Source: Bacteriovoracia bacterium | GTDB taxonomy: Bacteria; Bdellovibrionota; UBA1018; CAIPTA01 | Length of the DNA: 64,000 nt | Assembly: GCA_050246755.1 (NCBI GenBank) | Contig: JBFWVL010000005.1 | Coordinates: 160,001-224,000 of the forward strand | Reading direction: 5' to 3' | In this document: piece by piece, positions 14,267-64,000 of the stretch | How the letters are laid out: each line of letters begins with the position of its first letter | Position numbering within the stretch: the first letter of the stretch is position 1 | Notes under the pieces: model-generated | What the model was told of the DNA's origin: nothing | Database searches by the model: none | Seen by the model: the letters and a program-made list of their open reading frames with translations, nothing else | Made by a program: the position numbers and the translations under genes

Positions 14267-14488
14267 TTAAACAGCGGCTCCGAGCGCGTATTCTTTCTCT
14301 CTGGGAAGAATCTCGCTCACGATTGATTTTGGTTTCACGGTCTTGAGAGCTGCGAGTGCCCAATCGGGAACAGCGCAGAGCTCTTCGGAGTGGGTCTCGT
14401 CATAGTTGCAGTTCACACAAAAGGCGTGAGTGCTGAATCTTTCCAAACCACGCTCACCACAACGGGGGCACATACAGAACTTGTTCAT
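14267..14488 (-). CDS. Small zinc-ribbon protein
   Basis: CPRCG...CVNCNY and RBS GAGGAG. Confidence 0.65.
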   Translation of the reverse strand: MNKFCMCPRCGERGLERFSTHAFCVNCNYDETHSEELCAVPDWALAALKTVKPKSIVSEILPREKEYALGAAV

Positions 14489-15802: not shown

Positions 15803-15808
15803 TGGCAG

Positions 15809-15889
15809 TTAGTTTGAGCTACTGCCAGAGATGTAAGAGTCTGCTTCGGCCTCAAGTGCCGCCAGATTAATTACGATTTGCTCTTGCAT
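15809..15889 (-). CDS. Putative RiPP/autoinducer precursor peptide MQEQIVINLAALEAEADSYISGSSSN (26 aa; not in ORF track)
   Basis: AAGGAG RBS 5 nt before ATG. Fills the gap between the kinase stop and the DUF4135 start (6 nt after TAA). Ser-rich C-terminus. Confidence 0.8.
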   Translation of the reverse strand: MQEQIVINLAALEAEADSYISGSSSN

Positions 15890-15910
15890 GGTCTCTCCTT
15901 TCTTTCTTGT

Positions 15911-17704: not shown

Positions 17705-19227
17705 TCAACGCTCATTTCGACGCTTTCAAGAGGGAGCGTGTGAATCCCAAGCGGATGCGACGGCACTGACTTCACCCGACGGCTCCAAAGCCCAGAGGCT
17801 TCAGATCCGAAAAAAAGCGGAATCACAGTATTGTGTGCCAGAATTTTCTTTTGGATGTCCTTGTAGGCGTTCGCTCTGTCTTCTGGATCAACAATTTGAA
17901 TCACGTTGAGCAGAGCACTATCGACAGCTTTATCATCGACGTAAAAGTAATTAGATTCGTATTTGCCTTTGAAATAACCAAGGACAGAAAAGCCATCGGG
18001 GTAGTCCATCGCTTTTCGTGCGATGATAGCTTGGGACTTTTTCCCGAAGAGGCGCTGGAGTTTCTCACCCTTTGACAGTGCATTGAGCTTCACGGTTACG
18101 CCAAGTAGCGCCCACTTCTCTTTTAGAAAAAGTGCCGTCTTCTCTTCCAAGTTTGATGCGCCCTCGTAGTCCATCTCAATGACGATTGGCTTCGACGGTT
18201 TTGCCGACTTCATCGACTTCAACTGCTCCACGTCGGTTGCACTAAGTTCTCCGGCTAGACCAAATGGAATCAGGCCAAATGCCGCGCGATAAGACTGATT
18301 GCCAAGACTGCGAATGATTTCTGCGGAATCTACGGACGAATAGAGCGCGCGCCGCACATCACTCGGGACCTTCTCAGGATTGAAAACTACAAAAACTTCT
18401 CCCGCAAGTTCAGTAGCGGCGGCGGCCCAGCCCTGCTTTTGGAGTTTGGCCTTCTCGATATCGTCGATCCGATAGTGGTCGAGTGTATCAATCTTTTCAG
18501 CCAGCGCGAGCTCAACGGGTTTCTCGGCGACCATCGAATACGAAATGGATTTAGGAGGCAATGGGCTGTCCAGAGCGTCAGGTCTCCATTTCTCGATGGT
18601 GAGATTGGTCTTTGTTACTTCGCCGACGAGTTTGTAAGGGCCGCTAAACGCTCCCTTTGCTGAAATCTCCGGATTCTGTTTGAAGTCGTCAATCGGAAGG
18701 ATTGAGCAATCGGCTACAGCGAGTTGCTTCAGGAAAATGGCCGAGGGCTCGCTCAGTCGGAATTCGACAGTTTGATCGTCGATTGGAACCACTCCGAATT
18801 TTCCGATCTCCTGCTGGGTCTTGAATGCCCTCGCACCAGAAATGTAGTCAATGTCAGCGGCCATCGACGCTCCGACAAGAAACATCCTAGCGAACGTCAT
18901 TTGGACATTCTTGGCGGTGATCGGTTTTCCATCGGAAAATGTGGCTTTGCGTATTTTGAAGCGGTACGTCTTGTGATCTTCCGATTCAGTCCACGATTCC
19001 GCCAGGTCAGCGCGGATATCTCCGGTCGTGTTGTATCGGAGAAGCCCACGGTACAACTGAGTAGCCACAGCCATCGAGTACGCGTCTTCCATTTTCTGCG
19101 GATCGAGATTCATCGCCACCGCCGGCAAATGAATTCGCAACCCTTCAATCGCAGGAGTTTTAGATTTTGTGCAACTGACCATCACAGCTCCTAAAAGGAT
19201 GAATGCAACACCTCTACAAACGTGCAT
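17701..19227 (-). CDS. Family-5 (OppA/DppA-like) solute-binding lipoprotein, no cognate permease
   Basis: Lipobox MVSC, LDP, LYRGLL, DLAESW, FSDGKPITA, SGPYKL. Confidence 0.9.
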   Translation of the reverse strand: MHVCRGVAFILLGAVMVSCTKSKTPAIEGLRIHLPAVAMNLDPQKMEDAYSMAVATQLYRGLLRYNTTGDIRADLAESWTESEDHKTYRFKIRKATFSDGKPITAKNVQMTFARMFLVGASMAADIDYISGARAFKTQQEIGKFGVVPIDDQTVEFRLSEPSAIFLKQLAVADCSILPIDDFKQNPEISAKGAFSGPYKLVGEVTKTNLTIEKWRPDALDSPLPPKSISYSMVAEKPVELALAEKIDTLDHYRIDDIEKAKLQKQGWAAAATELAGEVFVVFNPEKVPSDVRRALYSSVDSAEIIRSLGNQSYRAAFGLIPFGLAGELSATDVEQLKSMKSAKPSKPIVIEMDYEGASNLEEKTALFLKEKWALLGVTVKLNALSKGEKLQRLFGKKSQAIIARKAMDYPDGFSVLGYFKGKYESNYFYVDDKAVDSALLNVIQIVDPEDRANAYKDIQKKILAHNTVIPLFFGSEASGLWSRRVKSVPSHPLGIHTLPLESVEMSVE

Positions 19228-20392
19228 AACCAGCTCTTTGCTTCGCCTGAAATCTCGGCAATGTCATAAGGCCGAGTACGATCGCGCAAAAGGCTCCTCG
19301 CCACAGTCCATCGGCAAATACCGGGAGAACCTTGCTCCACGATCCCACCAGGAGTTCGCCGCTCGCAAGAATGACAACCATTTGAGTCATGCGCGCACTC
19401 GTGACTGCTCCCATCTTTTCCTGGGGTGTATCCATCTGAATGTGCGCTGAGATTCTATGAAGAATCAGCCAGTAAAACGTATCTTTGGAGAGAGCGAGAG
19501 CAACCGTTATCCAGCCCATGCCAGAAAAGTAGCCGAGCATGCCATAAGAGACCGCAAGCCCGATCCAAAGAGACGATGAACGCTCACTAAGGGAATTGGA
19601 CCGCTCGATATATCCGGCAAACCACACGGCGACTCCGTAGATACCAATTAGAAGTGCCATCCACTTTTGATCGTCGCCCACCAGACGAGCTGTGAAGGAG
19701 GTCGTTCCCATCATTGAAATGGCCAAGAGCAAATCTAAGACGGCAGCGCGACTATTGTATCTGTAGAAGTCGGCGAACTTCGCGAAGACACTCTCGGCAA
19801 ACGAAGCTGCTCGCTCAATCGTGGGCTCCGCAATTGGCAAGAAGAATACAATGATTCCATTTGCCGTGAATGTCGCGAGATCGAACCAGATCGCAGTTTC
19901 GAATGTCGAATACTTAATGATGGGCCACGCGCAAAGACCGGCGAAAAGTGTAGCTCCTTGAGTTGCCTTGTTGAACCAGATTGCGTGACTTGCATTCGAG
20001 GCATACGAAGTGTCTGCCAAGAGCTTCGTGATCTTCGCTTTGCTGCCTGCCTGGAACGAAACGATGGAAGTTTTGAGTAGACTGAAAGCAACGAGTAGCC
20101 AGTATCCGTGGTGGCCCTGTTCCCAGGCCCAAAGAATACCGAGTGAAGCCGCAGCCGCACCAAGTTCAGCTACAACGATGGTCAGCCGCGGAGAAATAGA
20201 ATCGGTAACATGCCCGAACAGGCCAGCAATGATTATGGGTACTAACCGCTGAAGACCTAGAATTAAACTGATGTGAAAAAGGTCAAAGCCCCCCTGAACC
20301 ATGAAGGCAACCAAGCAGATATTGAACGTGAAACTCCCAATGGAAGAAAGGAGCGTGCCCAAGTAAAACCAAGAGGCTAGGTTCATTTTCAT
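19214..20392 (-). CDS. MFS transporter (putative peptide exporter)
   Basis: About 12 hydrophobic segments, GHVTDSISPR motif A-like, PQEKMGAV. Confidence 0.85.
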   Translation of the reverse strand: MKMNLASWFYLGTLLSSIGSFTFNICLVAFMVQGGFDLFHISLILGLQRLVPIIIAGLFGHVTDSISPRLTIVVAELGAAAASLGILWAWEQGHHGYWLLVAFSLLKTSIVSFQAGSKAKITKLLADTSYASNASHAIWFNKATQGATLFAGLCAWPIIKYSTFETAIWFDLATFTANGIIVFFLPIAEPTIERAASFAESVFAKFADFYRYNSRAAVLDLLLAISMMGTTSFTARLVGDDQKWMALLIGIYGVAVWFAGYIERSNSLSERSSSLWIGLAVSYGMLGYFSGMGWITVALALSKDTFYWLILHRISAHIQMDTPQEKMGAVTSARMTQMVVILASGELLVGSWSKVLPVFADGLWRGAFCAIVLGLMTLPRFQAKQRAGYARL

Positions 20393-21870
20393 GATACTGC
20401 CTCCTCGGTCTCCGCAGACTCGCCGAGAAGACGTTTCTTTCTGTTGAAGTAAGCTGCCTTCGACATTCCGAGAAGCGTATAGAGGAATCTGTTATTCCCA
20501 TCGAAAAGCTTCAATCCGCTGGCTAGATACAAGCGTTCCATCCATTCGAGGGCCGACTGAAATTGCGCTGCGGAAACATCCTCCTTCGAGCGCGGAAGCA
20601 GTCCATCGGGAATGAAAATTAGCTGATCCGGCGAAACAGCATTCGGATCAAGGCCAAGGTGTTCAGGTTTCAACACGGGCCTGGAGGAACCCTTGATGTC
20701 AATGTAAGCGCGTTCAACCGCATTCTGAAGCTCTCGAATGTTCCCACGCCAAGGATATGCAGCGAGCACCTTGCGTGCGGGCACGGAAATCTTTCCCATT
20801 GGAAGTCGGCGCTTCAAAAACTCCTCGGCCAAATATTCGATGTCCTCTGGACGCTCTCTCAGCGCCGGGACGCGAAGGGAAATCTGATTGAGACGGTAGA
20901 AGAGGTCTTCTCTGAAACGTCCCTTTTTGATTTCGGCTTCCAGGTCTCGGTTTGTAGCCGCAATCACGCGCACATTCACGGTAACGGGCTTGATGGCACC
21001 CACTGGAGTAAAGGTTTGTTCTTGGAGAACTCGCAAAAGCTTAGCCTGCATTTCCAAGGGAACTTCACCGATCTCATCGAGAAAGATGTCACCACCGTCG
21101 GCAAGCTTGAATTGGCCCTGCTTCGCCTCTGATGCCCCGGTGAAGGCGCCTTTTGCGTGACCAAACAACTCACTCTCGAAAAGGTTCGCCGGGATCGCGG
21201 CGCAATTGACGGCAATGAATGGTCGCGAGGGATCGTCTTCTTGAAGGTTGAGATTCCTGGCTACTAGCTCTTTTCCGGTTCCGTTTTCTCCAGTGATAAG
21301 AACGTAGGAATGTGTTCCCTTCATTCTCAGGATGTCGCGACGAAGCTTCAAAGTAACTTCGGAAACGCCCAATATCTCGTATGAACGAACATGCGTTGCG
21401 AGCTTGGCCGTTAATTTCCGATTTTTCTCAAACTGCGTTTCGTTTTCCTGAATCAGAGTCCGATTTCGTCGAAGGATCGCAGCTTTCTCCAATACGTTTG
21501 CCACGCGAAATTTTAGGTTTGCTGCAAATTCATCCGAGCCTTTGATGACGAAATCGGCCGCGCCAGCCTTCATCGTTTCAATAATGGTTTCGGGCTGACT
21601 ATTTCCGGTCAACATCACGACAGGGAGCTCGGGCATTCGGCGCTTGAGGAGCTTCAAAAATTCCAGCCCTGAAATTTGAGGTAAACCAAAGTCGAGAAGA
21701 ACTAGATCGGGCCGGAACTGGCCGAGGACCCGCATCGCTTCAGTCGGCTCATGGACCGTCGATACCTCGTGCTCCTGGCGAAAAAGAGCTACAACGGACT
21801 CAGCGAAACGCTTGTCATCGTCTACGAGCAGAATCCTTAAAGCTGGTGTTCCTTCTGGGCTTTCCGGCAT
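20389..21870 (-). CDS. Sigma54-dependent response regulator (NtrC-like)
   Basis: Receiver domain, GENGTGKE, ESELFGH-GAFTGA, FLDEIGE, FREDLFYRLN, WRGNIREL, C-terminal HTH. Confidence 0.95.
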   Translation of the reverse strand: MPESPEGTPALRILLVDDDKRFAESVVALFRQEHEVSTVHEPTEAMRVLGQFRPDLVLLDFGLPQISGLEFLKLLKRRMPELPVVMLTGNSQPETIIETMKAGAADFVIKGSDEFAANLKFRVANVLEKAAILRRNRTLIQENETQFEKNRKLTAKLATHVRSYEILGVSEVTLKLRRDILRMKGTHSYVLITGENGTGKELVARNLNLQEDDPSRPFIAVNCAAIPANLFESELFGHAKGAFTGASEAKQGQFKLADGGDIFLDEIGEVPLEMQAKLLRVLQEQTFTPVGAIKPVTVNVRVIAATNRDLEAEIKKGRFREDLFYRLNQISLRVPALRERPEDIEYLAEEFLKRRLPMGKISVPARKVLAAYPWRGNIRELQNAVERAYIDIKGSSRPVLKPEHLGLDPNAVSPDQLIFIPDGLLPRSKEDVSAAQFQSALEWMERLYLASGLKLFDGNNRFLYTLLGMSKAAYFNRKKRLLGESAETEEAVS

Positions 21871-21883
21871 AAGCCGGAGACAT

Positions 21884-21900
21884 AGCTAGGTTCATGCCAA
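21884..21900 (-). promoter_or_regulatory. Sigma54 (-24/-12) promoter of cassette 1
   Basis: TTGGCATGAACCTAGCT = TGGCA, GG-N10-GC, just upstream of the regulator gene. Confidence 0.65.
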
Positions 21901-22090: not shown

Positions 22091-22504
22091 CTAACGGAAT
22101 ATGGCGAAGCTCGCTATCAGCTTGAGCAGATCAGCACATGCTCGGCCGCCGATCACAGCTAGGAAAATTTCAGCCCAACGGGGAAAGCGGAAGACCGGGA
22201 ATTCCAATTTCCAAGAATTGAATCCGTACCCACTTCTACGGTGGCCGGAAGCGATTACAGCTTGGGCGTCGATCATGACGAGTTGAGCTTGGTGCATCTT
22301 CTCGGGACCGTAGTGTTGAAAGAGCCGATATAGCTCGCGGCAGGGAATTTCGGACGGCTTTTTTTCAATGTCTAGGAGTCTCGCTTCGGAGATTCCGAGG
22401 GAAGCCGCAACTTGTCCCGCACTTTCTCTTCGCTGCGTTCGTGCGCTGTAAAGAAAGCGACCCAGCTTCCGATTCATCGTAGCCCTTACTAATTCTCTGT
22501 CCAT
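22091..22504 (-). CDS. XRE-like HTH protein with hydrophobic C-terminus
   Basis: LGRFLYSARTQRRES..VAASLGIS...IEK. ATG 22504 follows AAGGAGG. Confidence 0.65.
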   Translation of the reverse strand: MDRELVRATMNRKLGRFLYSARTQRRESAGQVAASLGISEARLLDIEKKPSEIPCRELYRLFQHYGPEKMHQAQLVMIDAQAVIASGHRRSGYGFNSWKLEFPVFRFPRWAEIFLAVIGGRACADLLKLIASFAIFR

Positions 22505-22528
22505 CGTGCCTCCTTCAGCGATCACGCC

Positions 22529-22592
22529 GCATACGATCGTATGCACATTAGTTCAGAAAACCATCGAAAATCAAGTGCATACGATCATATGC
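22529..22592. promoter_or_regulatory. Pair of 16-bp palindromic operators between divergent XRE genes
   Basis: GCATACGATCGTATGC (22529-22544, perfect) and GCATACGATCATATGC (22577-22592). Confidence 0.7.
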
Positions 22593-22605: not shown

Positions 22606-22854
22606 GTGCAGGTGGCAGAACGTGATTCATTAACCAGTGGCGAAAAAAAGCTACTGAAAGTATTTGGGACCCGCGTCAGAGCTATCAGGGAGCAACAGAA
22701 GAAGTCGGTGTACGACGTTACTGGTGACGACATGCCAATAAAGACTCGGCAACACTGGCAGATGATAGAGGCCGGGAAGAAGAACATTCAGCTCACAACA
22801 ATTTCAAAAATTGCTGAATCGCTGGAGATTTCTTCCGGTGAATTATTTAAGTAG
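22606..22854 (+). CDS. XRE-family transcriptional regulator
   Basis: FGTRVRAIRE...IEAGKKNIQLTTISKIAESLEIS. Confidence 0.85.
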   Translation: MQVAERDSLTSGEKKLLKVFGTRVRAIREQQKKSVYDVTGDDMPIKTRQHWQMIEAGKKNIQLTTISKIAESLEISSGELFK

Positions 22855-29401: not shown

Positions 29402-30892
29402 ATGAACTCTTTAGATAAGGACCCCGGAGTTCTGCTCTCGTTCCCCGAAGGAAGTCCAATTGCATTTCCGATTGAATCTGAAAAGCCCGGCTTCTCGGGA
29501 CCTGTCTCGGGACCCATGTGGGACAGTCTTTCCAAACTTGATTCTTCTTACGACGATACTTTCGATTATTCCGTCTATGACAAGTTGTACGCAAAGTTTG
29601 GCGATAACCAGCCTCGCGGCGGTGTCGTCTTCAAGTCCGCTCTACGGCTTGCCAACTTTCACGATAGCTGCTCGAAGTGTCATTACTCCTTCGAGATCGA
29701 CACTTATGGGCGAGGCTGCGTTCATAATTGCCATTACTGTTATGCGAAGGACAGTCTCACGAAACATGGAGCGTGGAATCGGCCGCATCCTTTTCCGTTC
29801 GACGTAGCGGCGATTCGCAAAATTTTCTACACCGTTTTCGAAACTGATAAAAAGACGAAGTGGCGTGCTGTTATGGGTAGGCGAACGCCACTGAGAATCG
29901 GCTCGATGTCCGATTCTTTTATGTGGATGGATCAAAAGTACGGCGTCACCCTTGAGCTCCTGAAAATTCTTAATCACTATAAGTATCCGCACATCATCTT
30001 CACGCGCTCAGACTTGATAGCGACCGAAAAATATTTGTCCGCCTTGAGACCCGATCTGGCTTCGGTTCAATTCTCTATCTCAAGCAACAACGAGGCTTTC
30101 ACAAGAAAGGCTGAACCTGGCGCGCCCAGTATTCAGCGTCGGCTTCAAGCATTGAAAGTGCTTAACGAAGAAGGATTTAGAACGGCAGTTCGCATTAACC
30201 CGCTGTTTCCCACTTATCCTGATGGATATTTCACCGATCCGGAGAGCATTCGAGCGCGTTTCGGATCGCATGAAAATGCGCCAAAGTTTGGATTCTTTGA
30301 CATTGAGACGGTTGGTGAGTTCTTAGATAAGATCAAGGAATCTAAAACGCCGACGATTCTGGCTGGCTTCGTAAGACTCACTCCTTACACGATTAACCGG
30401 ATGAGAGACATTTCTGGCGTAGACATGAGATCGTTCTTTCGCCCAGAGAACTTCAACACTGGCGTTCGAGGAAACACGGACAAGAATTATTCAGACCGCG
30501 AAATTTCCTTCTATTATAAAAAAATCCACGCAGAAGCCATGAGCCGCGGCCTTCGATTCACAACTTGTTACATTGGAAATGGTTTGAAGGATTATTTTCA
30601 GTACCAAAACCTTTGGAGCAACAAGAAAGACTGCTGCGACGTCAGCGGAAACGTGGCTTCGTTTAAGACTTCCTGCCAAGAAATCAGTTGGGAAGATCGT
30701 GCAAAGCACGCCGCAAAGAAAATGTTTGTCGATCGTGCAATGAAAGAGGAAGCATACTATACGGCTCTTGCTGAACGGGCTACTTCTGGGGTGGCTACTG
30801 TGGCTGAAGAATCCCTGGAATCTTCTACGGTCATTCCAAAATCGAAAATGCGCGAAAAGATCGACTTGTCCACGAACATGGAGAGTCCTTGA
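29402..30892 (+). CDS. Radical SAM protein, spore photoproduct lyase-like family
   Basis: DTYGRGCVHNCHYCYA, IGSMSD, EPGAPS..RRL, RINP. Confidence 0.85.
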   Translation: MNSLDKDPGVLLSFPEGSPIAFPIESEKPGFSGPVSGPMWDSLSKLDSSYDDTFDYSVYDKLYAKFGDNQPRGGVVFKSALRLANFHDSCSKCHYSFEIDTYGRGCVHNCHYCYAKDSLTKHGAWNRPHPFPFDVAAIRKIFYTVFETDKKTKWRAVMGRRTPLRIGSMSDSFMWMDQKYGVTLELLKILNHYKYPHIIFTRSDLIATEKYLSALRPDLASVQFSISSNNEAFTRKAEPGAPSIQRRLQALKVLNEEGFRTAVRINPLFPTYPDGYFTDPESIRARFGSHENAPKFGFFDIETVGEFLDKIKESKTPTILAGFVRLTPYTINRMRDISGVDMRSFFRPENFNTGVRGNTDKNYSDREISFYYKKIHAEAMSRGLRFTTCYIGNGLKDYFQYQNLWSNKKDCCDVSGNVASFKTSCQEISWEDRAKHAAKKMFVDRAMKEEAYYTALAERATSGVATVAEESLESSTVIPKSKMREKIDLSTNMESP

Positions 30893-31338
30893 GTCGTACA
30901 AAGTCGATTCCCGGAATAAATATACAGTGGCCTTGGAGTCGCCTGATTGTTGACGGCAGCAAGACTGTCGAGACACGCCGTTATCCCATTCCTTCGCATT
31001 ATCTCGAAGTGCCGCTCGCGATTATTGAAACGCCTGGCCCAAAGGGAAAGTCGGAAGCCCAGATTCTCAAGGCACAGGTAGTCGGAATCGTCTGTTTTAA
31101 ACGTAGCTTTAGGTATTCAACCGCTGCTGACTGGCGCGACGATTTTAAACGCCATCAAGTGTCGGCAGATTCCCAGTTTCGCTTCGACTCAAAAAAAGAG
31201 ACGTGGGGATGGGAAATCATGTCGGTTACGAAATTCGCAAAGCCGTATCCCGCGCCCTCAAAGCGCGGGATCGTCTTTACTAAAAGCTGCAAAATCTCTA
31301 GCGGCGAGCCGTCTTCTTTTCTGTCGCCGGAGCTCTAA
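30889..31338 (+). CDS. ASCH/PUA-like domain protein
   Basis: INIQWPWSRLIVDGSKTVETR is the ASCH GxKxxExR signature. Confidence 0.85.
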   Translation: MSRTKSIPGINIQWPWSRLIVDGSKTVETRRYPIPSHYLEVPLAIIETPGPKGKSEAQILKAQVVGIVCFKRSFRYSTAADWRDDFKRHQVSADSQFRFDSKKETWGWEIMSVTKFAKPYPAPSKRGIVFTKSCKISSGEPSSFLSPEL

Positions 31339-34300
31339 CCAATCCGGAACACAACTCATCCAAGTCTCCAAGGGCCTTTTGAAGGGCTTTGATTGAGACG
31401 TTGTCTTTTCCTACTCCGGGTTTCAGCTCCTGACGGTCTAGGACATTTCGAATGATCGTCGTTTTGGTGCCGCCCTTTAATAGGTTGCTGACGAGCCCCG
31501 AAATCTGTTCATAGTGCGACACAACCTTTTCCCGAACCGATTTTTGAGTCAGAAGCGTTACAGGAATTGGCAGGCGCGCCAACTGTGGTGTTCCAATCCT
31601 CAGAGCCCCGCCGTTGAGATGCAGCGACTCGAACATATTTGAGTAAATTTCGGTAGCAACAGACGAATTTAGGTAAGCGGCGATTGCCTTCAATTCCTCT
31701 TTGTCGCCGAAAATCATCGTTGTCGAAATTCCAGGCGCATATGATCCGTTGTCGAAATATGCTCGGAGCATTTGGGTCATATTAGGAATGATAATCTTCT
31801 GCGTTTGATACTGCTTCTTTCTCTTATCAATAATTTTAGAAGATGAGAGGTCGAGGTACGGACTTTCGTAGCCGGCCTTCAAATACTGCACTTTCTGTAG
31901 ACCCCAAGTACACGCGAATCCCAGGACGTTTCCGCTAACGATGAATTTCACGGATTGCTTCGGTCGCTTCTCGGTAATGTTCGGCTTAATGCACTTGTAG
32001 GCCTCATCAACGGTCGCGGCTGCCAAGATTTCGAACTTGTCACCCAGTAGGAAACTCTCGAAAGCCTTGATGTCTGTAGCGGCCAATAGTTCCGACAAGT
32101 AGTTTGTCGCCGCGGAGCCTGGAAATTCCTTTTCACTCCAAGCGCAAGCCAAATCAAATTTTAGATCATGCTTACGGTAGCGAATCTTCTTAGGCTTGTT
32201 CGGCGACAACGTCAAAATGATCGGATAAACAGAAGCATCTTCAAAGATCGGCACATGACTTGCGTCATCGACGGCTTCGATGAATGTCTTCTTGTCTTCT
32301 CTAATGAATTCACGCATCCCAACGGCACTATCAACCGCGATTAACTTATTGGGAAGAATGAATCCGATCCGTGATGTCGGCCCAATCCGCCTAGCAACTT
32401 CTACGAACAAGGAGCAAATATCGAATGCGCCTTTTGCAGATGTCAGCTTTGCCTTAATGTCCTCTTTGTAATTAGGATTTCTTTGAAGAATCCGCTCAAG
32501 GAGGAACGTGTTAACGTAAGGGGGATTTCCAATAATCCCGTGGAATCCTCCGGCCTTCATAACAGGGGCGAAAGTCTTTCCGATTTTAACATCGTCAGTG
32601 AGCGAGTCGGCGCAAGTGAGTTGGTCAGCAAGCGGCTCTAGTTCCTGATTTTTCCGCACGGTGTACATCCAAAGGGAGAATTTCGCGAGTTCCACCGCAA
32701 GAGGGTTCAGGTCTATGCCATAGATGCAATTGTGAAGGATTTCCCAACGAACATCTTCGCGGTTGATGTTGGGGTGCGCATCTTCTTTGTAGATTGCGTC
32801 CAACATTCTTTCTTCCAGGTACTTGATCGCACCAATAAGAAAATGCCCAGAGCCCATTGCAGGATCGCAAACTCGCACAGCCAGAATTTCGTCAGTTGAT
32901 TTTGCCTTGCAGAGAGGATCGAGAACTTGCCCCACGATGTAGTCAACGATGTAGCTAGGAGTATAGTACGAGCCAGTGTCTTTTCGACTTCCGGTGCCGT
33001 TCTCAAGAAATAAATCGCCCTTTTCGATGACGGCATCTTTGAGTTTTTGCTTCTTTTGTTCGGTCAATTCTTTCCAGGGTCGGATTTTCTTTCCATCGTC
33101 TACGAGACGTTCAGTTGCACGAACGAGTTTGTAATCCAACAGACCCTCAAAGAGGGAGCCAAGGTGATCCGGTGATAATCTTTTGTAGTCGATGAATTTT
33201 AGATCGCCACCTTCATCATAGGCACATGCTAGTTCTACAATTGCGGGATTCAGTGCAGAATCTGGAATCGTATGGCGCTTGAAGTAGTCTTTTGAGCCAG
33301 ACGAAAACACCTCAGACCCTAAAGTGAAGACGCCAATGGATTTGTCGCCCTTTTCAAGGAGCGCCATCAGTTCGGAAATGTGTTGGTAGGATTTGTTTTG
33401 TGCCGACCACTTACGGCCAATCTCAAAATCCTTCTTTAGATCAAGTGCCAAACTTCTAAGCGAAGATGGGTAGAAGTCTGAAAGATCGTTTACATCGAAG
33501 ATTCCCTTCGCTTCAGCATTCAAAATGAACATCAATCGAAAGAGGTAGTACAGACTGTGCTGATAGATTTCGTTTAAATTTTCGTCGGAGAGATCAGAAT
33601 ACTGCGTAGCGAATCCACGACAGATCGTCTGAGTAATTCGAAAGGCGCGGTGTCGAAGCTGGGTTTCAACTTCCTTCGCATATTGTTCGCCTGATTTGTA
33701 GACGACATCCAAGAATGACTGACTGCTTGGGCCTTTTGAGAGGAATGCCTCTTTGCGGAAGAAGTTGAAGAAGTATTTGAATCGTTCGTCGTCGCGAGTT
33801 GCTAGAGCTTTTCGAATATTGATTTCAAAAAACGTCGAGAACTTTGACTCTGAATTTAGGGAATAGATGCGCCAATACTCGCCGTCAGTGAGTATGCCCC
33901 AAGTTTTTCCGGTGTCTTCCATGTACCGAATGATTTGATAGCTAGGGTTGCTGTTGGTTCTGCCTGTGCCGTCGAGGTTAACGCCCATCGCTTTGGCGTC
34001 GGCGACAGCAAGAACGTGCTTGAAGTATGCGGCATCATTTTTCGCACTTTTGCCGTGAATGTAAGATTTGTCGTCTGCGAAAAGGGAGTAATCTGGAATC
34101 TGCGTCTTGCCGCGTTTCTTCATTCGGTCTTGAACTTCATAGGTCCAGCCGAGACGCTTGAATATCGGGCGAATCCACTTGTCTTCCAGTTGCGCCTCAT
34201 CGAGGTCTTTGTATATGTCTTTGTACTCGTCCCAGGTTGAAAGCATCCATTCGTAGCATTCAGAGAACTCGGGCAGCGCCTCTGTCTCCCAATGCTCTAG

Positions 34301-34462
34301 GACGTAGGCGTCTTTCTTCTCTTCCGGAAGACGATGCAAAAGATAGTTTTCTGAGAACAGGCCATTGTTATTGAAATAGAGTCCCGTGCCATCAGGTCGA
34401 ACTTCTTGTTTCGCTGAAGCTAAGGTTTCCACGCTTTTGAATTTGCTCGAATATGCAGTCAT
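31298..34462 (-). CDS. Type IIG restriction-modification enzyme (Eco57I-like; nuclease, N6-MTase, TRD)
   Basis: PDY...DAK nuclease, ILTDG.YWR, GSYYTP, DPAMGSGHFL, GNPPY, C-terminal TaqI-like TRD. Confidence 0.9.
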   Translation of the reverse strand: MTAYSSKFKSVETLASAKQEVRPDGTGLYFNNNGLFSENYLLHRLPEEKKDAYVLEHWETEALPEFSECYEWMLSTWDEYKDIYKDLDEAQLEDKWIRPIFKRLGWTYEVQDRMKKRGKTQIPDYSLFADDKSYIHGKSAKNDAAYFKHVLAVADAKAMGVNLDGTGRTNSNPSYQIIRYMEDTGKTWGILTDGEYWRIYSLNSESKFSTFFEINIRKALATRDDERFKYFFNFFRKEAFLSKGPSSQSFLDVVYKSGEQYAKEVETQLRHRAFRITQTICRGFATQYSDLSDENLNEIYQHSLYYLFRLMFILNAEAKGIFDVNDLSDFYPSSLRSLALDLKKDFEIGRKWSAQNKSYQHISELMALLEKGDKSIGVFTLGSEVFSSGSKDYFKRHTIPDSALNPAIVELACAYDEGGDLKFIDYKRLSPDHLGSLFEGLLDYKLVRATERLVDDGKKIRPWKELTEQKKQKLKDAVIEKGDLFLENGTGSRKDTGSYYTPSYIVDYIVGQVLDPLCKAKSTDEILAVRVCDPAMGSGHFLIGAIKYLEERMLDAIYKEDAHPNINREDVRWEILHNCIYGIDLNPLAVELAKFSLWMYTVRKNQELEPLADQLTCADSLTDDVKIGKTFAPVMKAGGFHGIIGNPPYVNTFLLERILQRNPNYKEDIKAKLTSAKGAFDICSLFVEVARRIGPTSRIGFILPNKLIAVDSAVGMREFIREDKKTFIEAVDDASHVPIFEDASVYPIILTLSPNKPKKIRYRKHDLKFDLACAWSEKEFPGSAATNYLSELLAATDIKAFESFLLGDKFEILAAATVDEAYKCIKPNITEKRPKQSVKFIVSGNVLGFACTWGLQKVQYLKAGYESPYLDLSSSKIIDKRKKQYQTQKIIIPNMTQMLRAYFDNGSYAPGISTTMIFGDKEELKAIAAYLNSSVATEIYSNMFESLHLNGGALRIGTPQLARLPIPVTLLTQKSVREKVVSHYEQISGLVSNLLKGGTKTTIIRNVLDRQELKPGVGKDNVSIKALQKALGDLDELCSGLVRAPATEKKTARR

Positions 34463-58628: not shown

Positions 58629-59006
58629 CTAGTGGCTATCGGTAGGTTTGAGGTACTCTGCTGTCTCGGTTGAGCGGGGTGAGGGCGTCACCCTCGGTCT
58701 CTGTGCTTTCGTCCGCATGGGCTTTGACTTTGGCATTAGCGCATCGGCGATGAGAAGCCTTTTTCCCTCGATTACGAGAGCAATCAAGCGCCGTGTGCTC
58801 GCTCCATAAATGGCTTTCAGCTCCCAAAGTTTTTTGGTCGGCGGCGCGGCGATGCCGCGTTCGAAATTCGAGATGAACTGTGCGGAGGAATATCCTAGCC
58901 GTAGGCTGACCTCCCGTTGCGTAAGGTTCTTTTTTATCCGAAGTTCTTGTAGATAGGCTCCGAGCGCCGTGAATCTGCGAGCAATTAGGTACTCTCGTCC
59001 ATGCAT
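58629..59006 (-). CDS. XRE-family regulator
   Basis: LTQREVSLRLGYSSAQFISNFERG. Confidence 0.85.
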   Translation of the reverse strand: MHGREYLIARRFTALGAYLQELRIKKNLTQREVSLRLGYSSAQFISNFERGIAAPPTKKLWELKAIYGASTRRLIALVIEGKRLLIADALMPKSKPMRTKAQRPRVTPSPRSTETAEYLKPTDSH

Positions 59007-59333: not shown

Positions 59334-59588
59334 TTGAGTCAACTATCGAAAAAGAAAGCACAGGCGCAGTATCAACGCGCTTTCGGAAAACACCTCGCGC
59401 TGACGATTGAGCGCCGGGGCTATTCCTCGATCTACGACTTCTGGATTCGGAAGGCGGGCGACCACCTCTCGCGGGCCTCGATCAACTTTCTCGTTCTCGG
59501 CGAGAAAGACCCGAAGCTCTCGACCATCAGAATCCTCGCGCGCTTGCTGAACGTCGCCCCGAAAGACCTGCTCGACTTCGAGAAGTAG
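59334..59588 (+). CDS. XRE-family regulator
   Basis: FGKHL...GEKDPKLSTIRILARLLNVAPKDLLDF. Confidence 0.8.
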   Translation: MSQLSKKKAQAQYQRAFGKHLALTIERRGYSSIYDFWIRKAGDHLSRASINFLVLGEKDPKLSTIRILARLLNVAPKDLLDFEK

Positions 59589-59761: not shown

Positions 59762-59945
59762 GGCCGGCGCGCCGGTCAGCGCCAGATTCTCTTTAAATGA
59801 CTATATATTCTATAGTTGTGTGTCTTATGCAGCGATAACTCTTCCCGGTGGCCGGAATCCTGGCCGGGTAGATAAACAAAAATCCTCTTTGTTTTCGGAC
59901 TCGTTTCCAAAGCATCACCTGGGCCGTGGCCAGAAATCTGGCCAC
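59762..59945. promoter_or_regulatory. GGCC-N8-GGCC palindromic sites (putative UAS of cassette 2)
   Basis: 59926-59945 GTGGCCAGAAATCTGGCCAC, 59850-59865 GGCCGGAATCCTGGCC, 59762-59777 GGCCGGCGCGCCGGTC. Confidence 0.6.
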
Positions 59946-59993: not shown

Positions 59994-60009
59994 TGGCACG
60001 CTCCTTGCC
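59994..60009 (+). promoter_or_regulatory. Sigma54 (-24/-12) promoter of cassette 2
   Basis: TGGCACGCTCCTTGCC matches TGGCACG-N4-TTGC exactly. Confidence 0.85.
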
Positions 60010-60041
60010 CTTAGCAGCACACGCAAGAGAGGTAAGAGCCT

Positions 60042-61460
60042 GTGAAGTATAGGATTTTGCTAGTTGACGATAACAAGCTAGACATCGAGACGACGCTCGG
60101 AGAGTTCGCGGGTGAGGGCGATATGGAGTTCTCCACCGCGCAGACCGCCGAGCATGCGTTGACGCTCGTGAAGCAATCCCCCGACGCCTTCGCCGTTGTC
60201 CTGCTCGACTACAATCTGGCGGGCACCACCGGCGACAAGGCAGCAAAAGACCTACTTGCCATCAACGCCCGGCTCAACATCGTGATTCTCTCGGGCGATA
60301 ACACGCGCGCCGCCGCGATCAACACGCTCAAGGCCGGGGCGGTGGATTTCATCGACAAGACACTACCGCCGGAGGAGAAGATCGCGTCCGTCCGGGGCTA
60401 CTGCCGCAAGTTCGACGAAGTGGCGCGCGTAGTGACTTTCGAGGCCGATGGGTCGGCCCGCGCCAAGATCATAGCCGACGCCGGGCTTATTATCGGCCGC
60501 TCGAAGGCCCTAGCCGAAGTGGCCCAACAAATCCTGCGGATCGGCGGCAGTAGCTCCACCGCGCTCGTGCGCGGGGAATCCGGTACGGGTAAGGAAGTCG
60601 TGGCGCGAGCCATACACGACCACTCCACGCGCAAGGGAAAGGCATTCGTGCCCATCAACTGCGGCGCGATCCCCGAGAACCTGATCGAAAGCGAGCTATT
60701 CGGCCACGAGAAAGGCACGTTTACCGGCGCTCTTACGAAAAAGGTCGGAAAATTCCAGCTCGCGCACGGAGGGACCATCTTCCTCGATGAGATCGGGGAA
60801 ATGCCGCTCAATATGCAGGTGCGCCTCCTGCGGGTTTTGCAAGAGGGAACGATCGACATGATCGGCGGCCGGATGCCGATGCCGGTTGACGTTCGCGTGA
60901 TCGCGGCCACGAATCGAGATCTCGAAGAAGCCGTAAAAAAAGGCCAGTTCCGCGAAGACCTCTACTACCGCCTCAACGTGATTCCGTTCTACGTGCCGCC
61001 GCTCCGAGAGCGCAAAGAAGACATTGAGCCGCTAATCTCTCATTTCGTGCGTAACCACCCAACGGGTTCCGGCAAAAAGTTCCTCTACAGCACACTAAGA
61101 TACTTCCTTGATTATCCGTGGCGCGGGAACGTGCGCGAGCTGGAGAACACCATCGACCGCGTGCTTACCCTCACGCCGGATGAATACATTTCCCCTCGGC
61201 ACCTGGAACCAAAGTTTTTCGGCAACGACGCCTCGGGCCTGGACTTCGATTGCGATTGGCAGACGTTTCTCGACCAGAAGAAAAAGCGCGAGGACGAGCT
61301 GGATCGGAAATTCATTTCCTACCATCTGACGAAGCACAAGTCGGTGCGCGATCTCGCCAAGTCGAAGCTCAAGATGCCGAAATCCACTCTCCAGACTCGT
61401 ATCAACGAGCTTGAAATCGACGCCGAGGAACTTACGAAGTCGGAGGAGGAATATGCTTAA
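60042..61460 (+). CDS. Sigma54-dependent response regulator (NtrC-like)
   Basis: Receiver domain, GESGTGKE, ESELFGHEKGTFTGA, FLDEIGE, FREDLYYRLN, HTH. Confidence 0.95.
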   Translation: MKYRILLVDDNKLDIETTLGEFAGEGDMEFSTAQTAEHALTLVKQSPDAFAVVLLDYNLAGTTGDKAAKDLLAINARLNIVILSGDNTRAAAINTLKAGAVDFIDKTLPPEEKIASVRGYCRKFDEVARVVTFEADGSARAKIIADAGLIIGRSKALAEVAQQILRIGGSSSTALVRGESGTGKEVVARAIHDHSTRKGKAFVPINCGAIPENLIESELFGHEKGTFTGALTKKVGKFQLAHGGTIFLDEIGEMPLNMQVRLLRVLQEGTIDMIGGRMPMPVDVRVIAATNRDLEEAVKKGQFREDLYYRLNVIPFYVPPLRERKEDIEPLISHFVRNHPTGSGKKFLYSTLRYFLDYPWRGNVRELENTIDRVLTLTPDEYISPRHLEPKFFGNDASGLDFDCDWQTFLDQKKKREDELDRKFISYHLTKHKSVRDLAKSKLKMPKSTLQTRINELEIDAEELTKSEEEYA

Positions 61461-62538
61461 GCAGGTTTCCGAATCCTTGGAGCGCGCGGTGTTGGGTTGG
61501 ATCAACGTGGACCGCTACCTCCCGCTCCAGATCGACATTACCAACGCGTGCAATTTACGCTGTAAACATTGCTACCACCCGCACCACAAAAACGCGGGAG
61601 CCCTTGAGCTAAGCGATTGGCTGGCGATCCTCGACCAATACGACGCCCTGACGAGAAAGCTCCGCTTCCGCCCGAACGTAGTCATCTGCGGAGGCGAGCC
61701 GTTCTTGAGCCAGCACTTCGAGACAATCCTGCAAAACCTGCTCTCTCGTGAGAGGCCGTACCGCCTATCCGTGCTCACTAACGGCACGATCGTTGACCCG
61801 GCGAAGCTCGCGCTCCTCAAACAGTTCCCCGAGCTGAGCGTGCAGGTCAGCCTAGACGGCCCGAATGCCGAGGCTCACGATTCCGTGCGCGGGGCCGGCA
61901 ACTTCGCGCGGGCGCTGAATGGGATTCGTATTTTCCGCGAGCGCGGAATCAGGGTTCACCTCTCTGCGGTTCTCTCGAAGCGCACCTCCCGCTCGATCGG
62001 GGAGTTCTTCGACCTCGCCCGAGAGCTCAACGTGACCGGTATGGGCTTCGCCCGCCTGATCGTGCAGGGATACGCGCAGAAGCTCGTTACCGAAAACGAA
62101 GACCGCCCGCTCTCGCCGCTGGAGTTGCGGGACGCCTACCGCGCCCTCATCATGGATGCCGCCCGCACCGGGATAAAGACGAGCACTAACTCGCCGCTGT
62201 TCCACCTCGTGCAGCCGGGCCTCGGGCGTAACGGCCGCTTTTGGGAAGGAATCGTGATCGACTACCGGGGAAACTATCTTGCCAGTAGTCGCTCGCGCCT
62301 AATCCTGGGCCACGCCCTTACCGAAGGGATCGAAAATATTTTCCTGCGGCACCCGCTCTTGCAGCGCCTGCGTCGGCAGGATGTGAAAGTTTGCGGGGCT
62401 TGCCCGCACTACGCCGTGTGCGGCGGTGATCGGAATGCGGCTTACGCCGATTCCGGCGACTTCCTGGGGGCCGATCCCGGTTGCTGGCTTTTGACGAAAC
62501 AAAATCAAACAGCTGAGGAGAAAATATGCGCTTCCTGA
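61453..62538 (+). CDS. Radical SAM/SPASM-type peptide maturase-like enzyme
   Basis: CNLRCKHC, GGEP, SLDG and C-terminal CGAC...C...DPGC. ATG follows GGAGGA. Confidence 0.9.
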   Translation: MLKQVSESLERAVLGWINVDRYLPLQIDITNACNLRCKHCYHPHHKNAGALELSDWLAILDQYDALTRKLRFRPNVVICGGEPFLSQHFETILQNLLSRERPYRLSVLTNGTIVDPAKLALLKQFPELSVQVSLDGPNAEAHDSVRGAGNFARALNGIRIFRERGIRVHLSAVLSKRTSRSIGEFFDLARELNVTGMGFARLIVQGYAQKLVTENEDRPLSPLELRDAYRALIMDAARTGIKTSTNSPLFHLVQPGLGRNGRFWEGIVIDYRGNYLASSRSRLILGHALTEGIENIFLRHPLLQRLRRQDVKVCGACPHYAVCGGDRNAAYADSGDFLGADPGCWLLTKQNQTAEEKICAS

Positions 62539-62864
62539 AAAAACTGACCCTGACCGTTCTTTCCGTCATGCCCATCGCCTCGATTTCCACCGTGGCCTAC
62601 TGCCAGCTCAACGAGCTGGTCGGTGAGGAACAGAACGATCTGCTGCGTGGGCAAATCTCTTCGGCTCACGCGCTCCTGATGGCTCCCGGTACGGTTTCGA
62701 CGACTGAGGAAGAATCGAAGGTCTATCTTTCTCAGCAAACCGGCATCACCGACCCCAAGGAGCTTGAAGACGAGTTCCAGCGGCAACTGCGTGTGCTGGT
62801 GGAAAAGGGATTGGTAGAGAAGAACGAGAGGAACATCACTTCTAAAATTCCAAGCGAATGGTAG
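62526..62864 (+). CDS. Secreted 112-aa protein, candidate signal/RiPP precursor (C-terminus NITSKIPSEW)
   Basis: GAGGAG RBS, Sec-type signal peptide. Lies between the rSAM and binding-protein genes. Confidence 0.75.
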   Translation: MRFLKKLTLTVLSVMPIASISTVAYCQLNELVGEEQNDLLRGQISSAHALLMAPGTVSTTEEESKVYLSQQTGITDPKELEDEFQRQLRVLVEKGLVEKNERNITSKIPSEW

Positions 62865-62869
62865 AGTGA

Positions 62870-64000
62870 ATGAGGCGCGTTTTCGTTCTCATCACTTTGG
62901 GTTTGGCGCTCGGAGGTTTTTGTATGCAGCAGCTCGAAGGACAGAAGAGAAGAATCCGCGTGGCGTTTGGAAGCCCCTGGAAGACGACTCATCCGGGACT
63001 CCAGCACACGCTCGTCGGCGATCTTGTCCTGAGCAACCAGTACGAGGCGCTGGTCGGCATGAATGAGTTCGGCGTCGCCGTACCTCTCGCCGCGAAGTCT
63101 TGGGACGCGAGCGAGGATTTCAAGACGTTCACCTTCCATATCGACACGAGTAAGACGTTCTCCGACGGTGAGCACCTTTCCGCGCGGGACTTCAAGCGGT
63201 CTTGGGAAGATGCCTTGGCGCTGGAGCCGAAGTCGAGCAATAGCAGCCTCCTCGACATTATGTATAAGATTCGGGGCTTCTCGGATTTCCCGAAAACGAA
63301 AACCATTTCTGGCATCGAGGTCGTGGACGACTCTACGCTCCGCATACACTTCGACTCCGCGTTCCGCATGGCCCTGAGCCATTTCATGGGAAACCGTTTC
63401 GCCGTCTATAAGGAGAAGGATGGTAAGTTCCTCGGGACGGGAAAGTTCGTGATCGACGAGCGGGCCGAGAATGATCTGCTGTTCGCGCCGAATCCCCGCG
63501 ATCCCGACGCGAAAAATCTGCCTTCCATCGAGGTTTCAGTCGTGAGAACCGACGAGGCGACGGCGCGCCTGCTCGATGGTACGATCGATGTTTTCGCCTA
63601 CGGGCGGGGCTCTTCCGTTTCGCCTACGATCAAAGAGAGCGGAAAGCTCTCCGTGGTCGTTGGTCAGGATGCCCTGCACGAGACGACGATCCTGAACCTT
63701 AAACATGGAAGGTTCTTTCACAACCGCCAGTATCGCCTGGCGATGCAATACCTCATCCACAAGAAGTTTTCCGCGGAGCCGGCGCTGCTCGGAAACACGG
63801 ATTACTCGTCAGTGGACGCGCAGGTGTTTCTGCCGCTCCAGCCGGGCCGGATTCCAGATCAAGACGTAGAAAAAATCATCGACAGTGGCGAGCGTTTCGT
63901 GCTGGAAATGATCGCCGCGACCAAGAAGCACCCGCTGCTGGTCTACACTTCGGAAAGCGACGATTGGCTGCTCCCATTTCTCCGCGAGATCGGCGTGGCC
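62870..64000 (+). CDS. Family-5 solute-binding protein (runs off the window; missing from ORF track)
   Basis: Manual translation MRRVFVLITLGLALGG...QYEALVG...PLAAKSW..SEDFKTFTFHI...FSDGEHLSARDFKRSW...GTGKF, open to the window end. Confidence 0.85.
   Translation, partial: MRRVFVLITLGLALGGFCMQQLEGQKRRIRVAFGSPWKTTHPGLQHTLVGDLVLSNQYEALVGMNEFGVAVPLAAKSWDASEDFKTFTFHIDTSKTFSDGEHLSARDFKRSWEDALALEPKSSNSSLLDIMYKIRGFSDFPKTKTISGIEVVDDSTLRIHFDSAFRMALSHFMGNRFAVYKEKDGKFLGTGKFVIDERAENDLLFAPNPRDPDAKNLPSIEVSVVRTDEATARLLDGTIDVFAYGRGSSVSPTIKESGKLSVVVGQDALHETTILNLKHGRFFHNRQYRLAMQYLIHKKFSAEPALLGNTDYSSVDAQVFLPLQPGRIPDQDVEKIIDSGERFVLEMIAATKKHPLLVYTSESDDWLLPFLREIGVA

Follow-up and report, generated by a model that had tools for sequence, protein, structure and literature searches.

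A radical SAM cassette beside conjugation genes in a Bacteriovoracia genome as a candidate peptide-signalling circuit

The DNA considered here, termed the window, is a 64,000-nucleotide stretch of a Bacteriovoracia bacterium genome (NCBI GenBank assembly GCA_050246755.1, contig JBFWVL010000005.1, positions 160,001 to 224,000), given as C5:160001-224000 in our coordinates. Its right-hand end carries a gene cassette, referred to below as cassette 2, in which a sigma-54 promoter is followed by the genes for an NtrC-type activator, a radical SAM (rSAM) enzyme, a 112-aa secreted precursor-like protein, a family-5 solute-binding protein (SBP5) and, beyond the window, a hybrid histidine kinase. The segment C5:219001-238000 (L002) was fetched to read beyond the window, and window-equivalent numbering continues the window positions past 64000. 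Successive genes overlap by 8 nt and 13 nt at the first two junctions, are 5 nt apart at the third and overlap by 1 nt at the fourth (SBP5 stop and kinase start), and everything from the promoter to the kinase forms a single translationally coupled run. The following features were recorded at the locus.

58629..59006, minus strand: XRE-type helix-turn-helix (HTH) regulator, 125 aa (Pfam HTH_3, E 6.1e-9), half of a divergent pair
59334..59588, plus strand: small XRE-like HTH protein, 84 aa (HTH_3, E 3.1e-4; 21.2 bits, below the Pfam cut-off of 23 bits)
59850..59865: candidate activator-binding site 1, GGCCGGAATCCTGGCC, which forms repeats with site 2 at a distance of 78 nt
59928..59943: candidate activator-binding site 2, GGCCAGAAATCTGGCC, a palindrome lying 51 nt upstream of the -24 element
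59994..60008, plus strand: sigma-54 (-24/-12) promoter, TGGCACGCTCCTTGC, with the perfect TGGCAC-N5-TTGC consensus
60042..61460, plus strand: NtrC-type response regulator/sigma-54 activator, 472 aa, GTG start (Pfam receiver (REC) and Sigma54_activat domains)
61453..62538, plus strand: radical SAM enzyme, 361 aa (Pfam Radical_SAM, E 2.2e-23), with a CX3CX2C motif
62526..62864, plus strand: secreted precursor-like protein, 112 aa, with a predicted signal peptide and the tail ...IPSEW
62853..62861, plus strand: codons of Ser110-Glu111-Trp112, the invariant Ser and variable tail of the family alignment
62870..64000, ending at window-equivalent 64393, plus strand: solo SBP_bac_5 protein, 507 aa (Pfam, E 7e-34)
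L002 5393-7087: hybrid histidine kinase, 564 aa, with HATPase_c
L002 7084-7992, minus strand: orphan gene, 302 aa, between the kinase and the type IV secretion system (T4SS) region
L002 8046-8061 and 8103-8118: second candidate GGCC-N6-CTGGCC pair, upstream of the zinc-ribbon gene
L002 8240-8548: small zinc-ribbon gene (CxxC...CxxCxWD), preceding the T4SS genes
L002 9486-18943: T4SS gene set

An earlier reading of the letters alone (the sequence-only reading) had described a perfect sigma-54 promoter, tightly coupled genes for the NtrC-like regulator, the rSAM enzyme, the 112-aa protein and the family-5 binding protein, and a divergent XRE pair next door; all of these were recovered, the plus-strand member of the pair only below the cut-off. 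Contigs from a run of another study match L002 1-12000 with 0-1 differences, and such contigs bridge the junctions rSAM-small protein-SBP5, SBP5-kinase-orf302 and orf302-T4SS. Since independent contigs span all junctions, the arrangement of the cassette is not an assembly artefact. The DNA of L002 1-12000 is present in bioreactor-sludge and wastewater run contigs of other studies, with 0-1 differences per 12 kb.

The 112-aa protein has no Pfam or NCBIfam match. Its secretion, as proposed earlier, is predicted from a Sec-type signal peptide at about residues 1-25 with an AXA-type site (TVA|Y). The signal has a basic start, a hydrophobic core with an invariant Pro and Ser, and an AXA-type end, which in relatives reads LAA|T, VAA|Q or FAA|K. 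A conserved acidic stretch and then a helical, conserved middle segment with the consensus L-x2-G-L-x3-N-E-K follow the signal, and close to the C-terminus stands Ser110, the column of which is invariant in 21 of 21 aligned family members. A profile search of 1.84 billion representatives returned 73 clusters at E<=1e-3, 50 of them at <=1e-10, and column statistics were taken from the 71 profile matches shorter than 200 aa. Ser is present in all 63 sequences aligned at this column, the remaining 8 of the 71 being gapped; Pro directly precedes it in 51 of the 63, and an aromatic residue or His lies no more than 4 residues away in 45.

The tail that follows this Ser is 1-10 residues long (median 4) and occurs in 60 distinct versions among the 63 sequences. 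The C-termini of close variants are PSEW, PSAW or PSRW, and within a clade the tail is usually kept (PSEW/PSAW/PSRW; GPSH[YF]AI; GGGGWG), with an identity over the last 10 residues of 0.77-0.85 within three of four clades. Only in the GPSHYAI clade does the spacer clearly fall behind the tail in conservation (0.57 vs 0.82), and in the SPSEH clade conservation ends after SPSEHA. Most family members retain a conserved middle domain of 60-80 residues; forms of 49-50 aa, encoded at two loci, comprise just a signal, a linker rich in Gly and a tail. The gene adjoins that of the enzyme in 11 of 11 loci and combines a conserved leader with a variable core, as is characteristic of precursor genes of peptides that are ribosomally synthesised and modified after translation (RiPPs). 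The family pattern is the one to be expected if the specificity of a precursor resided in its C-terminal end, and in this respect the small protein resembles such a precursor. Prediction of a complex between SBP5 (residues 24-507) and the mature small protein (27-112), run without controls, gave a score of 0.00, which counts neither for nor against binding. The ESM Atlas yielded no usable feature for the small protein, the structural rows lying below the bar with a weak winged-helix-like resemblance.

For the rSAM enzyme, a start at ATG 61453 is favoured by the conservation of M1 and K3 in relatives. The match to PF04055 (83.7 bits against a cut-off of 29.5) places it in the radical SAM superfamily, and the core cysteines C33, C37 and C40, as well as Cys79 and the C-terminal cysteines C314-x2-C317-x5-C323...C344, are kept in 10 of 10 homologues, these four being the only ones conserved in the C-terminal part. 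A SPASM motif comprises seven Cys and two auxiliary 4Fe-4S clusters; the four cysteines would be enough for one auxiliary cluster, of a twitch-like or partial SPASM kind. Pfam SPASM (PF13186) was not matched at E<=0.01, and a homologue reaches E 0.0067, below the cut-off. The earlier assignment to radical SAM/SPASM proteins holds for the superfamily, but only in part for SPASM, the cysteines and profile matches of the enzyme falling short of that subfamily. An AlphaFold2 model based on a 3-sequence alignment has a mean pLDDT of 60, with the C-terminal 50 residues below 50, a quality that does not suffice for a fold search.

No named maturase family accommodates the enzyme: the best 25 of 76 NCBIfam matches all lie below their cut-offs, with TIGR04053 at the top (118.8 bits vs 395), in a comparison that included TIGR04053, AhbD, ScmE, ACGX, GeoRSP, MftC, HxsC (E 1.9e-17, 63 bits, cut-off 268) and PqqE. 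The closest solved sequences in the PDB are SkfB (6efn, E 1.2e-18), 8vpo and anSME (4k36, E 5e-11), with further matches to ChlB, CteB (5wgg), PqqE (6c8v) and SuiB (5v1q), and the alignment to solved enzymes is confined to residues 19-200. We take SkfB, anSME, CteB, PqqE, SuiB and the YcaO enzymes to modify peptides or proteins; anSME acts on Ser/Cys of Sec-exported proteins. Obvious candidates for the modification site in the small protein are its fixed Ser and the aromatic residue often found close by, and we know of no family that a P-S-x-aromatic substrate motif near the C-terminus would match.

Contig C4 encodes a paralogue of the enzyme (34% over 184 aa) close to an SBP5 gene; it was rejected as a second cassette, since its neighbours (HPPD, RNase H, AdoHcy hydrolase and an Na+/H+ antiporter) form a housekeeping context. 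P0084 (1954 aa), a cadherin-repeat protein, was discarded as a spurious profile match. The database protein P0041 (476 aa) joins an rSAM homologue in frame with a homologue of the small protein, signal peptide included, and could be a natural fusion or a frameshift artefact.

The SBP5 gene encodes an SBP_bac_5 domain (PF00496). The sequence-only reading had expected a hybrid kinase and tra genes past position 64000 and had named ABC permeases or ATPases as the genes that would contradict it; the next gene is a kinase, the 15 kb that follow SBP5 contain neither an ABC permease nor an ABC ATPase gene, and T4SS genes follow. The lack of adjoining ABC genes and a kinase adjacency kept in relatives characterise this protein as a solo SBP5. 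The kinase has hydrophobic segments near residues 17-35 and 137-157 with a loop of about 100 residues between them and an H-box AHNIKSPL (both by eye), HATPase_c (E 1.2e-18) and a receiver-like C-terminal domain, and the NCBIfam NahK/ErcS hybrid-kinase model NF041832 aligns to residues 216-555. From the two transmembrane segments, H-box, HATPase_c and receiver we judge it to be a hybrid sensor kinase; Pfam Response_reg was not reported for it at E<=0.01 and reaches E 7.8e-4 in the homologue of L012.

The downstream T4SS set comprises VirB4/TraC, CagX-like, TrbI, FtsK-type coupling and Replic_Relax proteins, all exceeding the Pfam cut-offs except the CagX-like one (25.4 bits vs 34.2). The adjacent T4SS, coupling protein and relaxase, together with a patchy distribution, lead us to regard the cassette as cargo of an integrative or conjugative element. 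A zinc-ribbon protein follows each cassette on the T4SS side.

In six related loci, a 72-76-aa open reading frame (ORF) that is absent from the cassette of this window lies between the regulator and the rSAM gene, at the following positions.

L012 7762-7992
L013 7762-7992
L015 7765-7992
L016 7770-7991
L017 7799-8017
L024 7783-8004

Its product contains an H-box-like motif, L-K/R-H-D-L-x-G-L, in which His-Asp is invariant, and may be a small phosphotransfer protein; hhalign puts it on the H-box region of the kinase with a probability of 1.7% and E 0.03, which is a hint only.

At the other end of the cassette, TGGCACGCTCCTTGC is the sole perfect TGGCAC-N5-TTGC match in the window. Such a match is weak alone, as 0.15 are expected in the window and at least one occurred in 15 of 100 shuffles; the whole genome contains 21. 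The promoter lies in a 450-nt non-coding stretch, with 33 nt between its end and the first GTG start codon, and rpoN (sigma-54) is encoded in the genome. The activator combines REC (Response_reg, E 8.7e-14), a sigma-54 AAA+ domain (Sigma54_activat, E 2.6e-71) whose loop reads GTFTGA, and an AAA lid, and it reaches no NCBIfam equivalog cut-off (NtrC 344 bits vs 559, LuxO 276 vs 800). The REC domain, the GAFTGA-type loop of the AAA+ domain, the -24/-12 promoter and rpoN identify it as an enhancer-binding protein of the NtrC type. Candidate sites 1 and 2 form direct and inverted repeats. Their pattern, GGCC-N6-CTGGCC, which was defined post hoc after the sites had been seen, has 46 matches at 45 distinct sites in the 3.55-Mb genome, and four of these are located here within 7.3 kb. 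They represent candidate operator/enhancer elements that could link the cassette promoter and the T4SS-proximal gene. A metagenome contig scan with the rSAM enzyme gave a single distant relative (26% identity), so no close loci were available for footprinting of the promoter and repeat motifs.

The rSAM enzyme was not found in five genomes of the same genus, nor in the eight genomes of the same family that include them; of 26 genomes belonging to another family of the same class, two had it. A scan of one genome per species produced 16 rSAM loci, mostly labelled Bdellovibrionota; L026 (26% identity, Omnitrophota) proved to be a different rSAM and was excluded. Gene-order counts cover only loci where the relevant DNA was visible. 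A small ORF with a hydrophobic N-terminus follows the rSAM gene in 11 of 11 loci (L011-L019, L022, L023), SBP5 comes next in 9 of 9, and the kinase follows SBP5 in 7 of 7 rSAM-type loci; no ABC transporter gene lies between the rSAM, small ORF, SBP5 and kinase genes. An upstream REC-AAA+ regulator is encoded in L012, L015, L016, L017 and L024, a short REC-HTH_8 protein in L011, and L019 and L020 have BLAST-level REC matches; no regulator lies directly upstream in L018, L022 and L023. T4SS-type genes in the flanks include VirB4 homologues (L016, L017, L024) and TraU with a VirB11-like gene (L015). One Bdellovibrionota genome holds three rSAM cassettes on three contigs (L012, L013, L015), with near-identical tails (SGGGGWGQ twice, SGGGGGWG once).

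The genome under study holds four T4SS sets of this type, and the other three each adjoin an NtrC-type gene, a solo SBP5, a kinase, a YcaO-domain protein and a signal-bearing small protein:

C6:145759-151394 (L027): YcaO cassette, small-protein tail AAAYSVICY
C6:33459-39328 (L028): YcaO cassette, small-protein tail SEPSCWTAPF
C1:1319370-1324841 (L029): YcaO cassette, small-protein tail GQPSCVGGL

The three regulators of these cassettes are the closest paralogues of the cassette 2 regulator (320, 311 and 306 bits), that of cassette 1, described below, giving 272 bits. The YcaO protein was matched in 8 of 60 other relatives, and seven of these loci were fetched: the order YcaO, small protein, SBP5, kinase, NtrC is complete in L042, L043, L044, L046 and L048 and is kept in L045 and L047 as far as the contigs reach, with the kinase after SBP5 in 6 of 6 where visible. 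Small-protein tails in these relatives are GGGSGATCG, GSGATCEK, PSGGGGGASCG, HPTSI, GTGAPSSG, GAPSSIGMGK and GNPSCYSSRISE. YcaO enzymes cyclise Cys, Ser or Thr, and each of these tails offers one of these residues. The small proteins of both types share a design (signal, optional spacer and a Pro/Gly-Ser-containing tail) and are analogous in design only. The earlier idea of a sensing chassis with a swapped synthesis module is strongly supported, mainly by the three T4SS-linked YcaO cassettes with their NtrC, solo SBP5 and kinase genes.

A further cassette, cassette 1, lies within the window:

9299-12352: TrwB-type coupling protein gene near cassette 1
14267-14488, minus strand: zinc-ribbon gene of cassette 1
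14774-21899, minus strand: cassette 1, encoding NtrC, major facilitator superfamily (MFS), SBP5, kinase and 342-aa DUF4135 (LanM N-terminal-like) proteins
21899: sigma-54-like site of cassette 1, TGGCATGAACCTAGC, with 2 mismatches
22091-22546 (minus) and 22606-22854 (plus): divergent XRE pair, recognised by eye from translations

The sequence-only reading had held that cassettes 1 and 2 have the same chassis and comparable XRE pairs. The link is architectural only, the two sharing gene architecture, the XRE pair and a downstream zinc-ribbon gene. At sequence level they are more distant: identity is 44% between the regulators and just 26% between the kinases, although each kinase is the best paralogue of the other, and the SBP5s do not find each other (tblastn, 1e-5). 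No secreted small precursor was found adjoining cassette 1.

Sigma-54 sites with no more than 1 mismatch precede the first cassette gene in 8 of the 19 loci scanned, namely in this locus, L022, the C1 and C6b cassettes, L042, L043, L045 and L046. Sites towards the zinc-ribbon/T4SS side were found in L012, L015 and L044 (1 mismatch) and in the C6a cassette (2 mismatches); the zinc-ribbon gene itself is headed by the sigma-54-like promoter in L012, L015 and C6a, and the L044 site lies about 1.5 kb upstream of this gene, with other ORFs between. Since the activator of the cassette is the sole nearby enhancer-binding protein in loci with such promoters, autoinduction is the natural reading there, as is control of the transfer genes in some of the elements.

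Taken together, these features suggest that the locus is a self-contained, element-borne and autoinduced signalling circuit based on a modified peptide, a proposal for which we see even chances. In this circuit, the rSAM enzyme would act on the 112-aa pre-protein while this is still in the cytoplasm, modifying its C-terminal end at Ser110 or beside it. Sec would then export the pre-protein, the Sec signal perhaps taking the place of an exporter, and signal peptidase I would cut it at the AXA-type site. The modified tail might be freed as a short peptide or stay attached to the small protein, and in the periplasm it would be bound by the solo SBP5. Loaded SBP5 would then act on the periplasmic loop of the hybrid kinase, and the phosphorelay would set the activity of the NtrC-type activator. 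The activator would drive the sigma-54 promoter of its own operon, giving positive feedback, and would probably also act on the adjoining zinc-ribbon/T4SS region. The outcome would be the coupling of conjugation to the density or identity of neighbouring cells.

A wider version, which we put forward tentatively and with less than even confidence, is that conjugative elements of Bdellovibrionota carry modular ribosomal-peptide pheromone circuits that control their transfer, with several orthogonal channels per genome. Their Sec-exported precursors would have a fixed Pro-Ser handle and a variable, pherotype-like tail, and tailoring would be interchangeable among radical SAM, YcaO and possibly LanM-like enzymes. 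A dedicated solo SBP5, hybrid kinase and sigma-54 relay would read the tail, autoinduce the cassette and switch on the T4SS genes, and the five cassettes of this genome would coexist as orthogonal channels.

Several observations speak against the circuit proposed for this locus. Some tails have just 1-2 residues after the Ser (e.g., PSW), and for this reason the tail alone cannot be the whole signal. The cassette contains no protease or dedicated exporter gene, so that the release of a free peptide is pure inference; bulky or macrocyclic modifications suit the Sec pore poorly, according to the bufferin authors (PMC11626156). The rSAM enzyme has no recognisable RiPP-recognition domain, its radical SAM core beginning at about residue 25, and no phosphotransfer protein is visible in the cassette, although a hybrid kinase needs one. 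At the thresholds used, 11 of the 19 loci have no sigma-54 site upstream of the first cassette gene. No intergenic sigma-54 promoter precedes the T4SS genes of this locus even with up to 3 mismatches allowed, so the link to conjugation here rests on adjacency and on the repeat motif defined post hoc. One relative, in a metagenome-assembled genome labelled "Elusimicrobia", has a context (QueG, Omp85) that looks chromosomal, as noted for L023. Finally, no homology could be detected between the small proteins of the rSAM and YcaO types, the best match in a 4-sequence database having E 0.004.

The main rival explanation, which we consider unlikely, is that the cue sensed by SBP5, kinase and NtrC is external, for instance prey-derived or cell-wall-derived peptides, and that the small protein is a non-diffusible periplasmic accessory (a co-receptor, a tethered ligand or an inhibitor of SBP5 or the kinase) rather than a cell-cell signal. 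Family-5 binding proteins are generally known to bind many peptides and Bdellovibrionota to be largely predators, and the shortness of some tails and the missing protease and exporter fit this explanation; a conserved middle domain of this length also exceeds the needs of a typical leader. However, the 49-50-aa forms drop precisely this domain and keep the signal, linker and tail. The extreme C-terminus, varying between clades and kept within three of four, fits a specificity-determining ligand made by the element itself, and the paralogous cassettes each have their own enzyme, small protein and very divergent SBP5.

It is less probable still that the rSAM enzyme and the small protein make a non-signalling RiPP with an antimicrobial, metal-binding or envelope-modifying role, for which SBP5, kinase and NtrC would provide regulation, self-sensing or immunity. 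Two-component regulators are, to general knowledge, common in RiPP clusters, and the bufferins are Sec-exported periplasmic RiPPs of 60-70 residues, as described for them (PMC11626156). However, the tails contain no conserved metal ligands, Ser being the only fixed residue among them, and no immunity or export genes are present. The chassis, moreover, recurs beside T4SS genes in four cassettes of this genome, with cassette 1 as a fifth beside a TrwB-type gene, and T4SS-linked forms occur in L015, L016, L017, L024, L043 and L044; sigma-54 promoters aim at the T4SS side in four loci. The notion of an HXS-like defence or entry-exclusion device, in which an rSAM-matured periplasmic effector blocks incoming DNA, is very improbable. 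In its favour, exclusion functions are known to be frequent on mobile elements, the HXS rSAM enzymes mature a signal-peptide-bearing periplasmic protein at an SHRSS motif (PMC13128918), and the enzyme has the weak HxsC match mentioned above. Against it, PADLOC gave only generic matches, for an AAA+ domain and for the rSAM core (to pVip), and the small protein, SBP5 and kinase went unmatched there. HxS repeats are missing from the small protein, as is any Pfam-detectable domain (such as a peptidoglycan-binding one), and the SBP5-kinase-activator trio would be left unexplained.

The proposed peptide-signalling circuit combines systems of known kinds: a binding protein-assisted relay from a hybrid kinase to a sigma-54 activator, a mobile element under pheromone control and a maturase of RiPPs. 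The first resembles the LuxP-LuxQ-LuxU-LuxO relay of Vibrio (functions as generally known), in which a periplasmic binding protein is likewise paired with a membrane hybrid kinase and the output is an NtrC-type sigma-54 activator. The slot of LuxU could correspond to the 72-76-aa ORF with its H-box-like HD in related loci, this cassette having no histidine phosphotransfer gene. Unlike LuxP, the binding protein is of family 5 (peptide/nickel type), and the activator is not an orthologue of LuxO, its score being far below the cut-off of that model. The presumed ligand is a ribosomal peptide, unlike Vibrio autoinducer 2 (AI-2), and a further difference from the Vibrio relay is that a single operon on a mobile element encodes synthase, precursor, receptor and regulator.

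Peptide pheromones controlling conjugation are textbook matter for Gram-positive plasmids and integrative and conjugative elements, whereas in Gram-negative bacteria control of conjugation by signalling is, to our knowledge, essentially limited to acyl-homoserine lactones. As in pCF10 (PrgZ/PrgX/cCF10), ICEBs1 RapI-PhrI and pLS20 Rap-Phr, as these are generally understood, the element would encode a Sec-exported pro-peptide with a C-terminal signal; a family-5, OppA-like binding protein and the link to conjugation genes are further features in common. The Gram-positive pheromones are, again from general knowledge, unmodified, imported by Opp and recognised by a cytoplasmic receptor. The present system lacks a permease, pairs its binding protein with a membrane kinase and a sigma-54 activator, includes an enzyme of the RiPP type (rSAM or YcaO) and has a diderm host.

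The rSAM enzyme shares with SkfB, anSME, CteB, PqqE and SuiB the CX3CX2C core, a Cys-rich C-terminal domain and an adjacent small substrate-like gene, and it differs from SPASM/twitch maturases in its four conserved C-terminal cysteines, the lack of an N-terminal RiPP-recognition domain and an alignment restricted to residues 19-200. Full-text literature searches, judged from their result listings, brought up no description of such a system. Precedents exist for Sec-signal RiPP precursors: the bufferins (PMC11626156) and HxsA, the rSAM-matured periplasmic protein of HXS (PMC13128918), are both modified in the cytoplasm before export, have an N-terminal cleavable signal peptide instead of a dedicated exporter and give products of unusual length for RiPPs, and the small protein of this locus would be like them in these respects. 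The bufferins differ from the present case in the use of MNIO enzymes, Cys-rich motifs and copper buffering, and HxsA in its enzymes HxsB/HxsC, its HxS repeats and its role in phage defence; neither is coupled there to an SBP5-kinase-sigma-54 sensor or to T4SS genes.

If the circuit operates as proposed, it would represent an unusual peptide-based form of signalling in a Gram-negative bacterium, a counterpart to the Gram-positive pheromones, and a RiPP-based quorum or kin-recognition system by which a diderm controls horizontal gene transfer. A compact operon with the synthase, precursor, periplasmic receptor, kinase and sigma-54 activator makes it a directly testable candidate, and the exchange of rSAM and YcaO around a shared Pro-Ser precursor design offers a natural experiment on how signalling specificity could diversify. 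The analysis would also extend the very short list of Sec-exported RiPP-like precursors by another class of enzyme, the second, delineates a protein family that had no annotation (73 representative clusters), and points to an rSAM clade with a candidate reaction on a Ser-x-aromatic C-terminus. Orthogonal sets of peptide, SBP5 and kinase could serve as parts for synthetic biology.

Two further regions may be mentioned in addition. For the product of the orphan gene (302 aa) that separates the kinase from the T4SS region, Pfam, NCBIfam and PADLOC gave no match, and the genome holds no paralogue of it. Another radical SAM protein (496 aa), unrelated to that of cassette 2, is encoded at 29402-30892 (plus strand) of the window, next to an Eco57I/MmeI-type restriction-modification gene (31298-34462), an SNF2 helicase and DUF2779, in what looks like a defence or restriction island.

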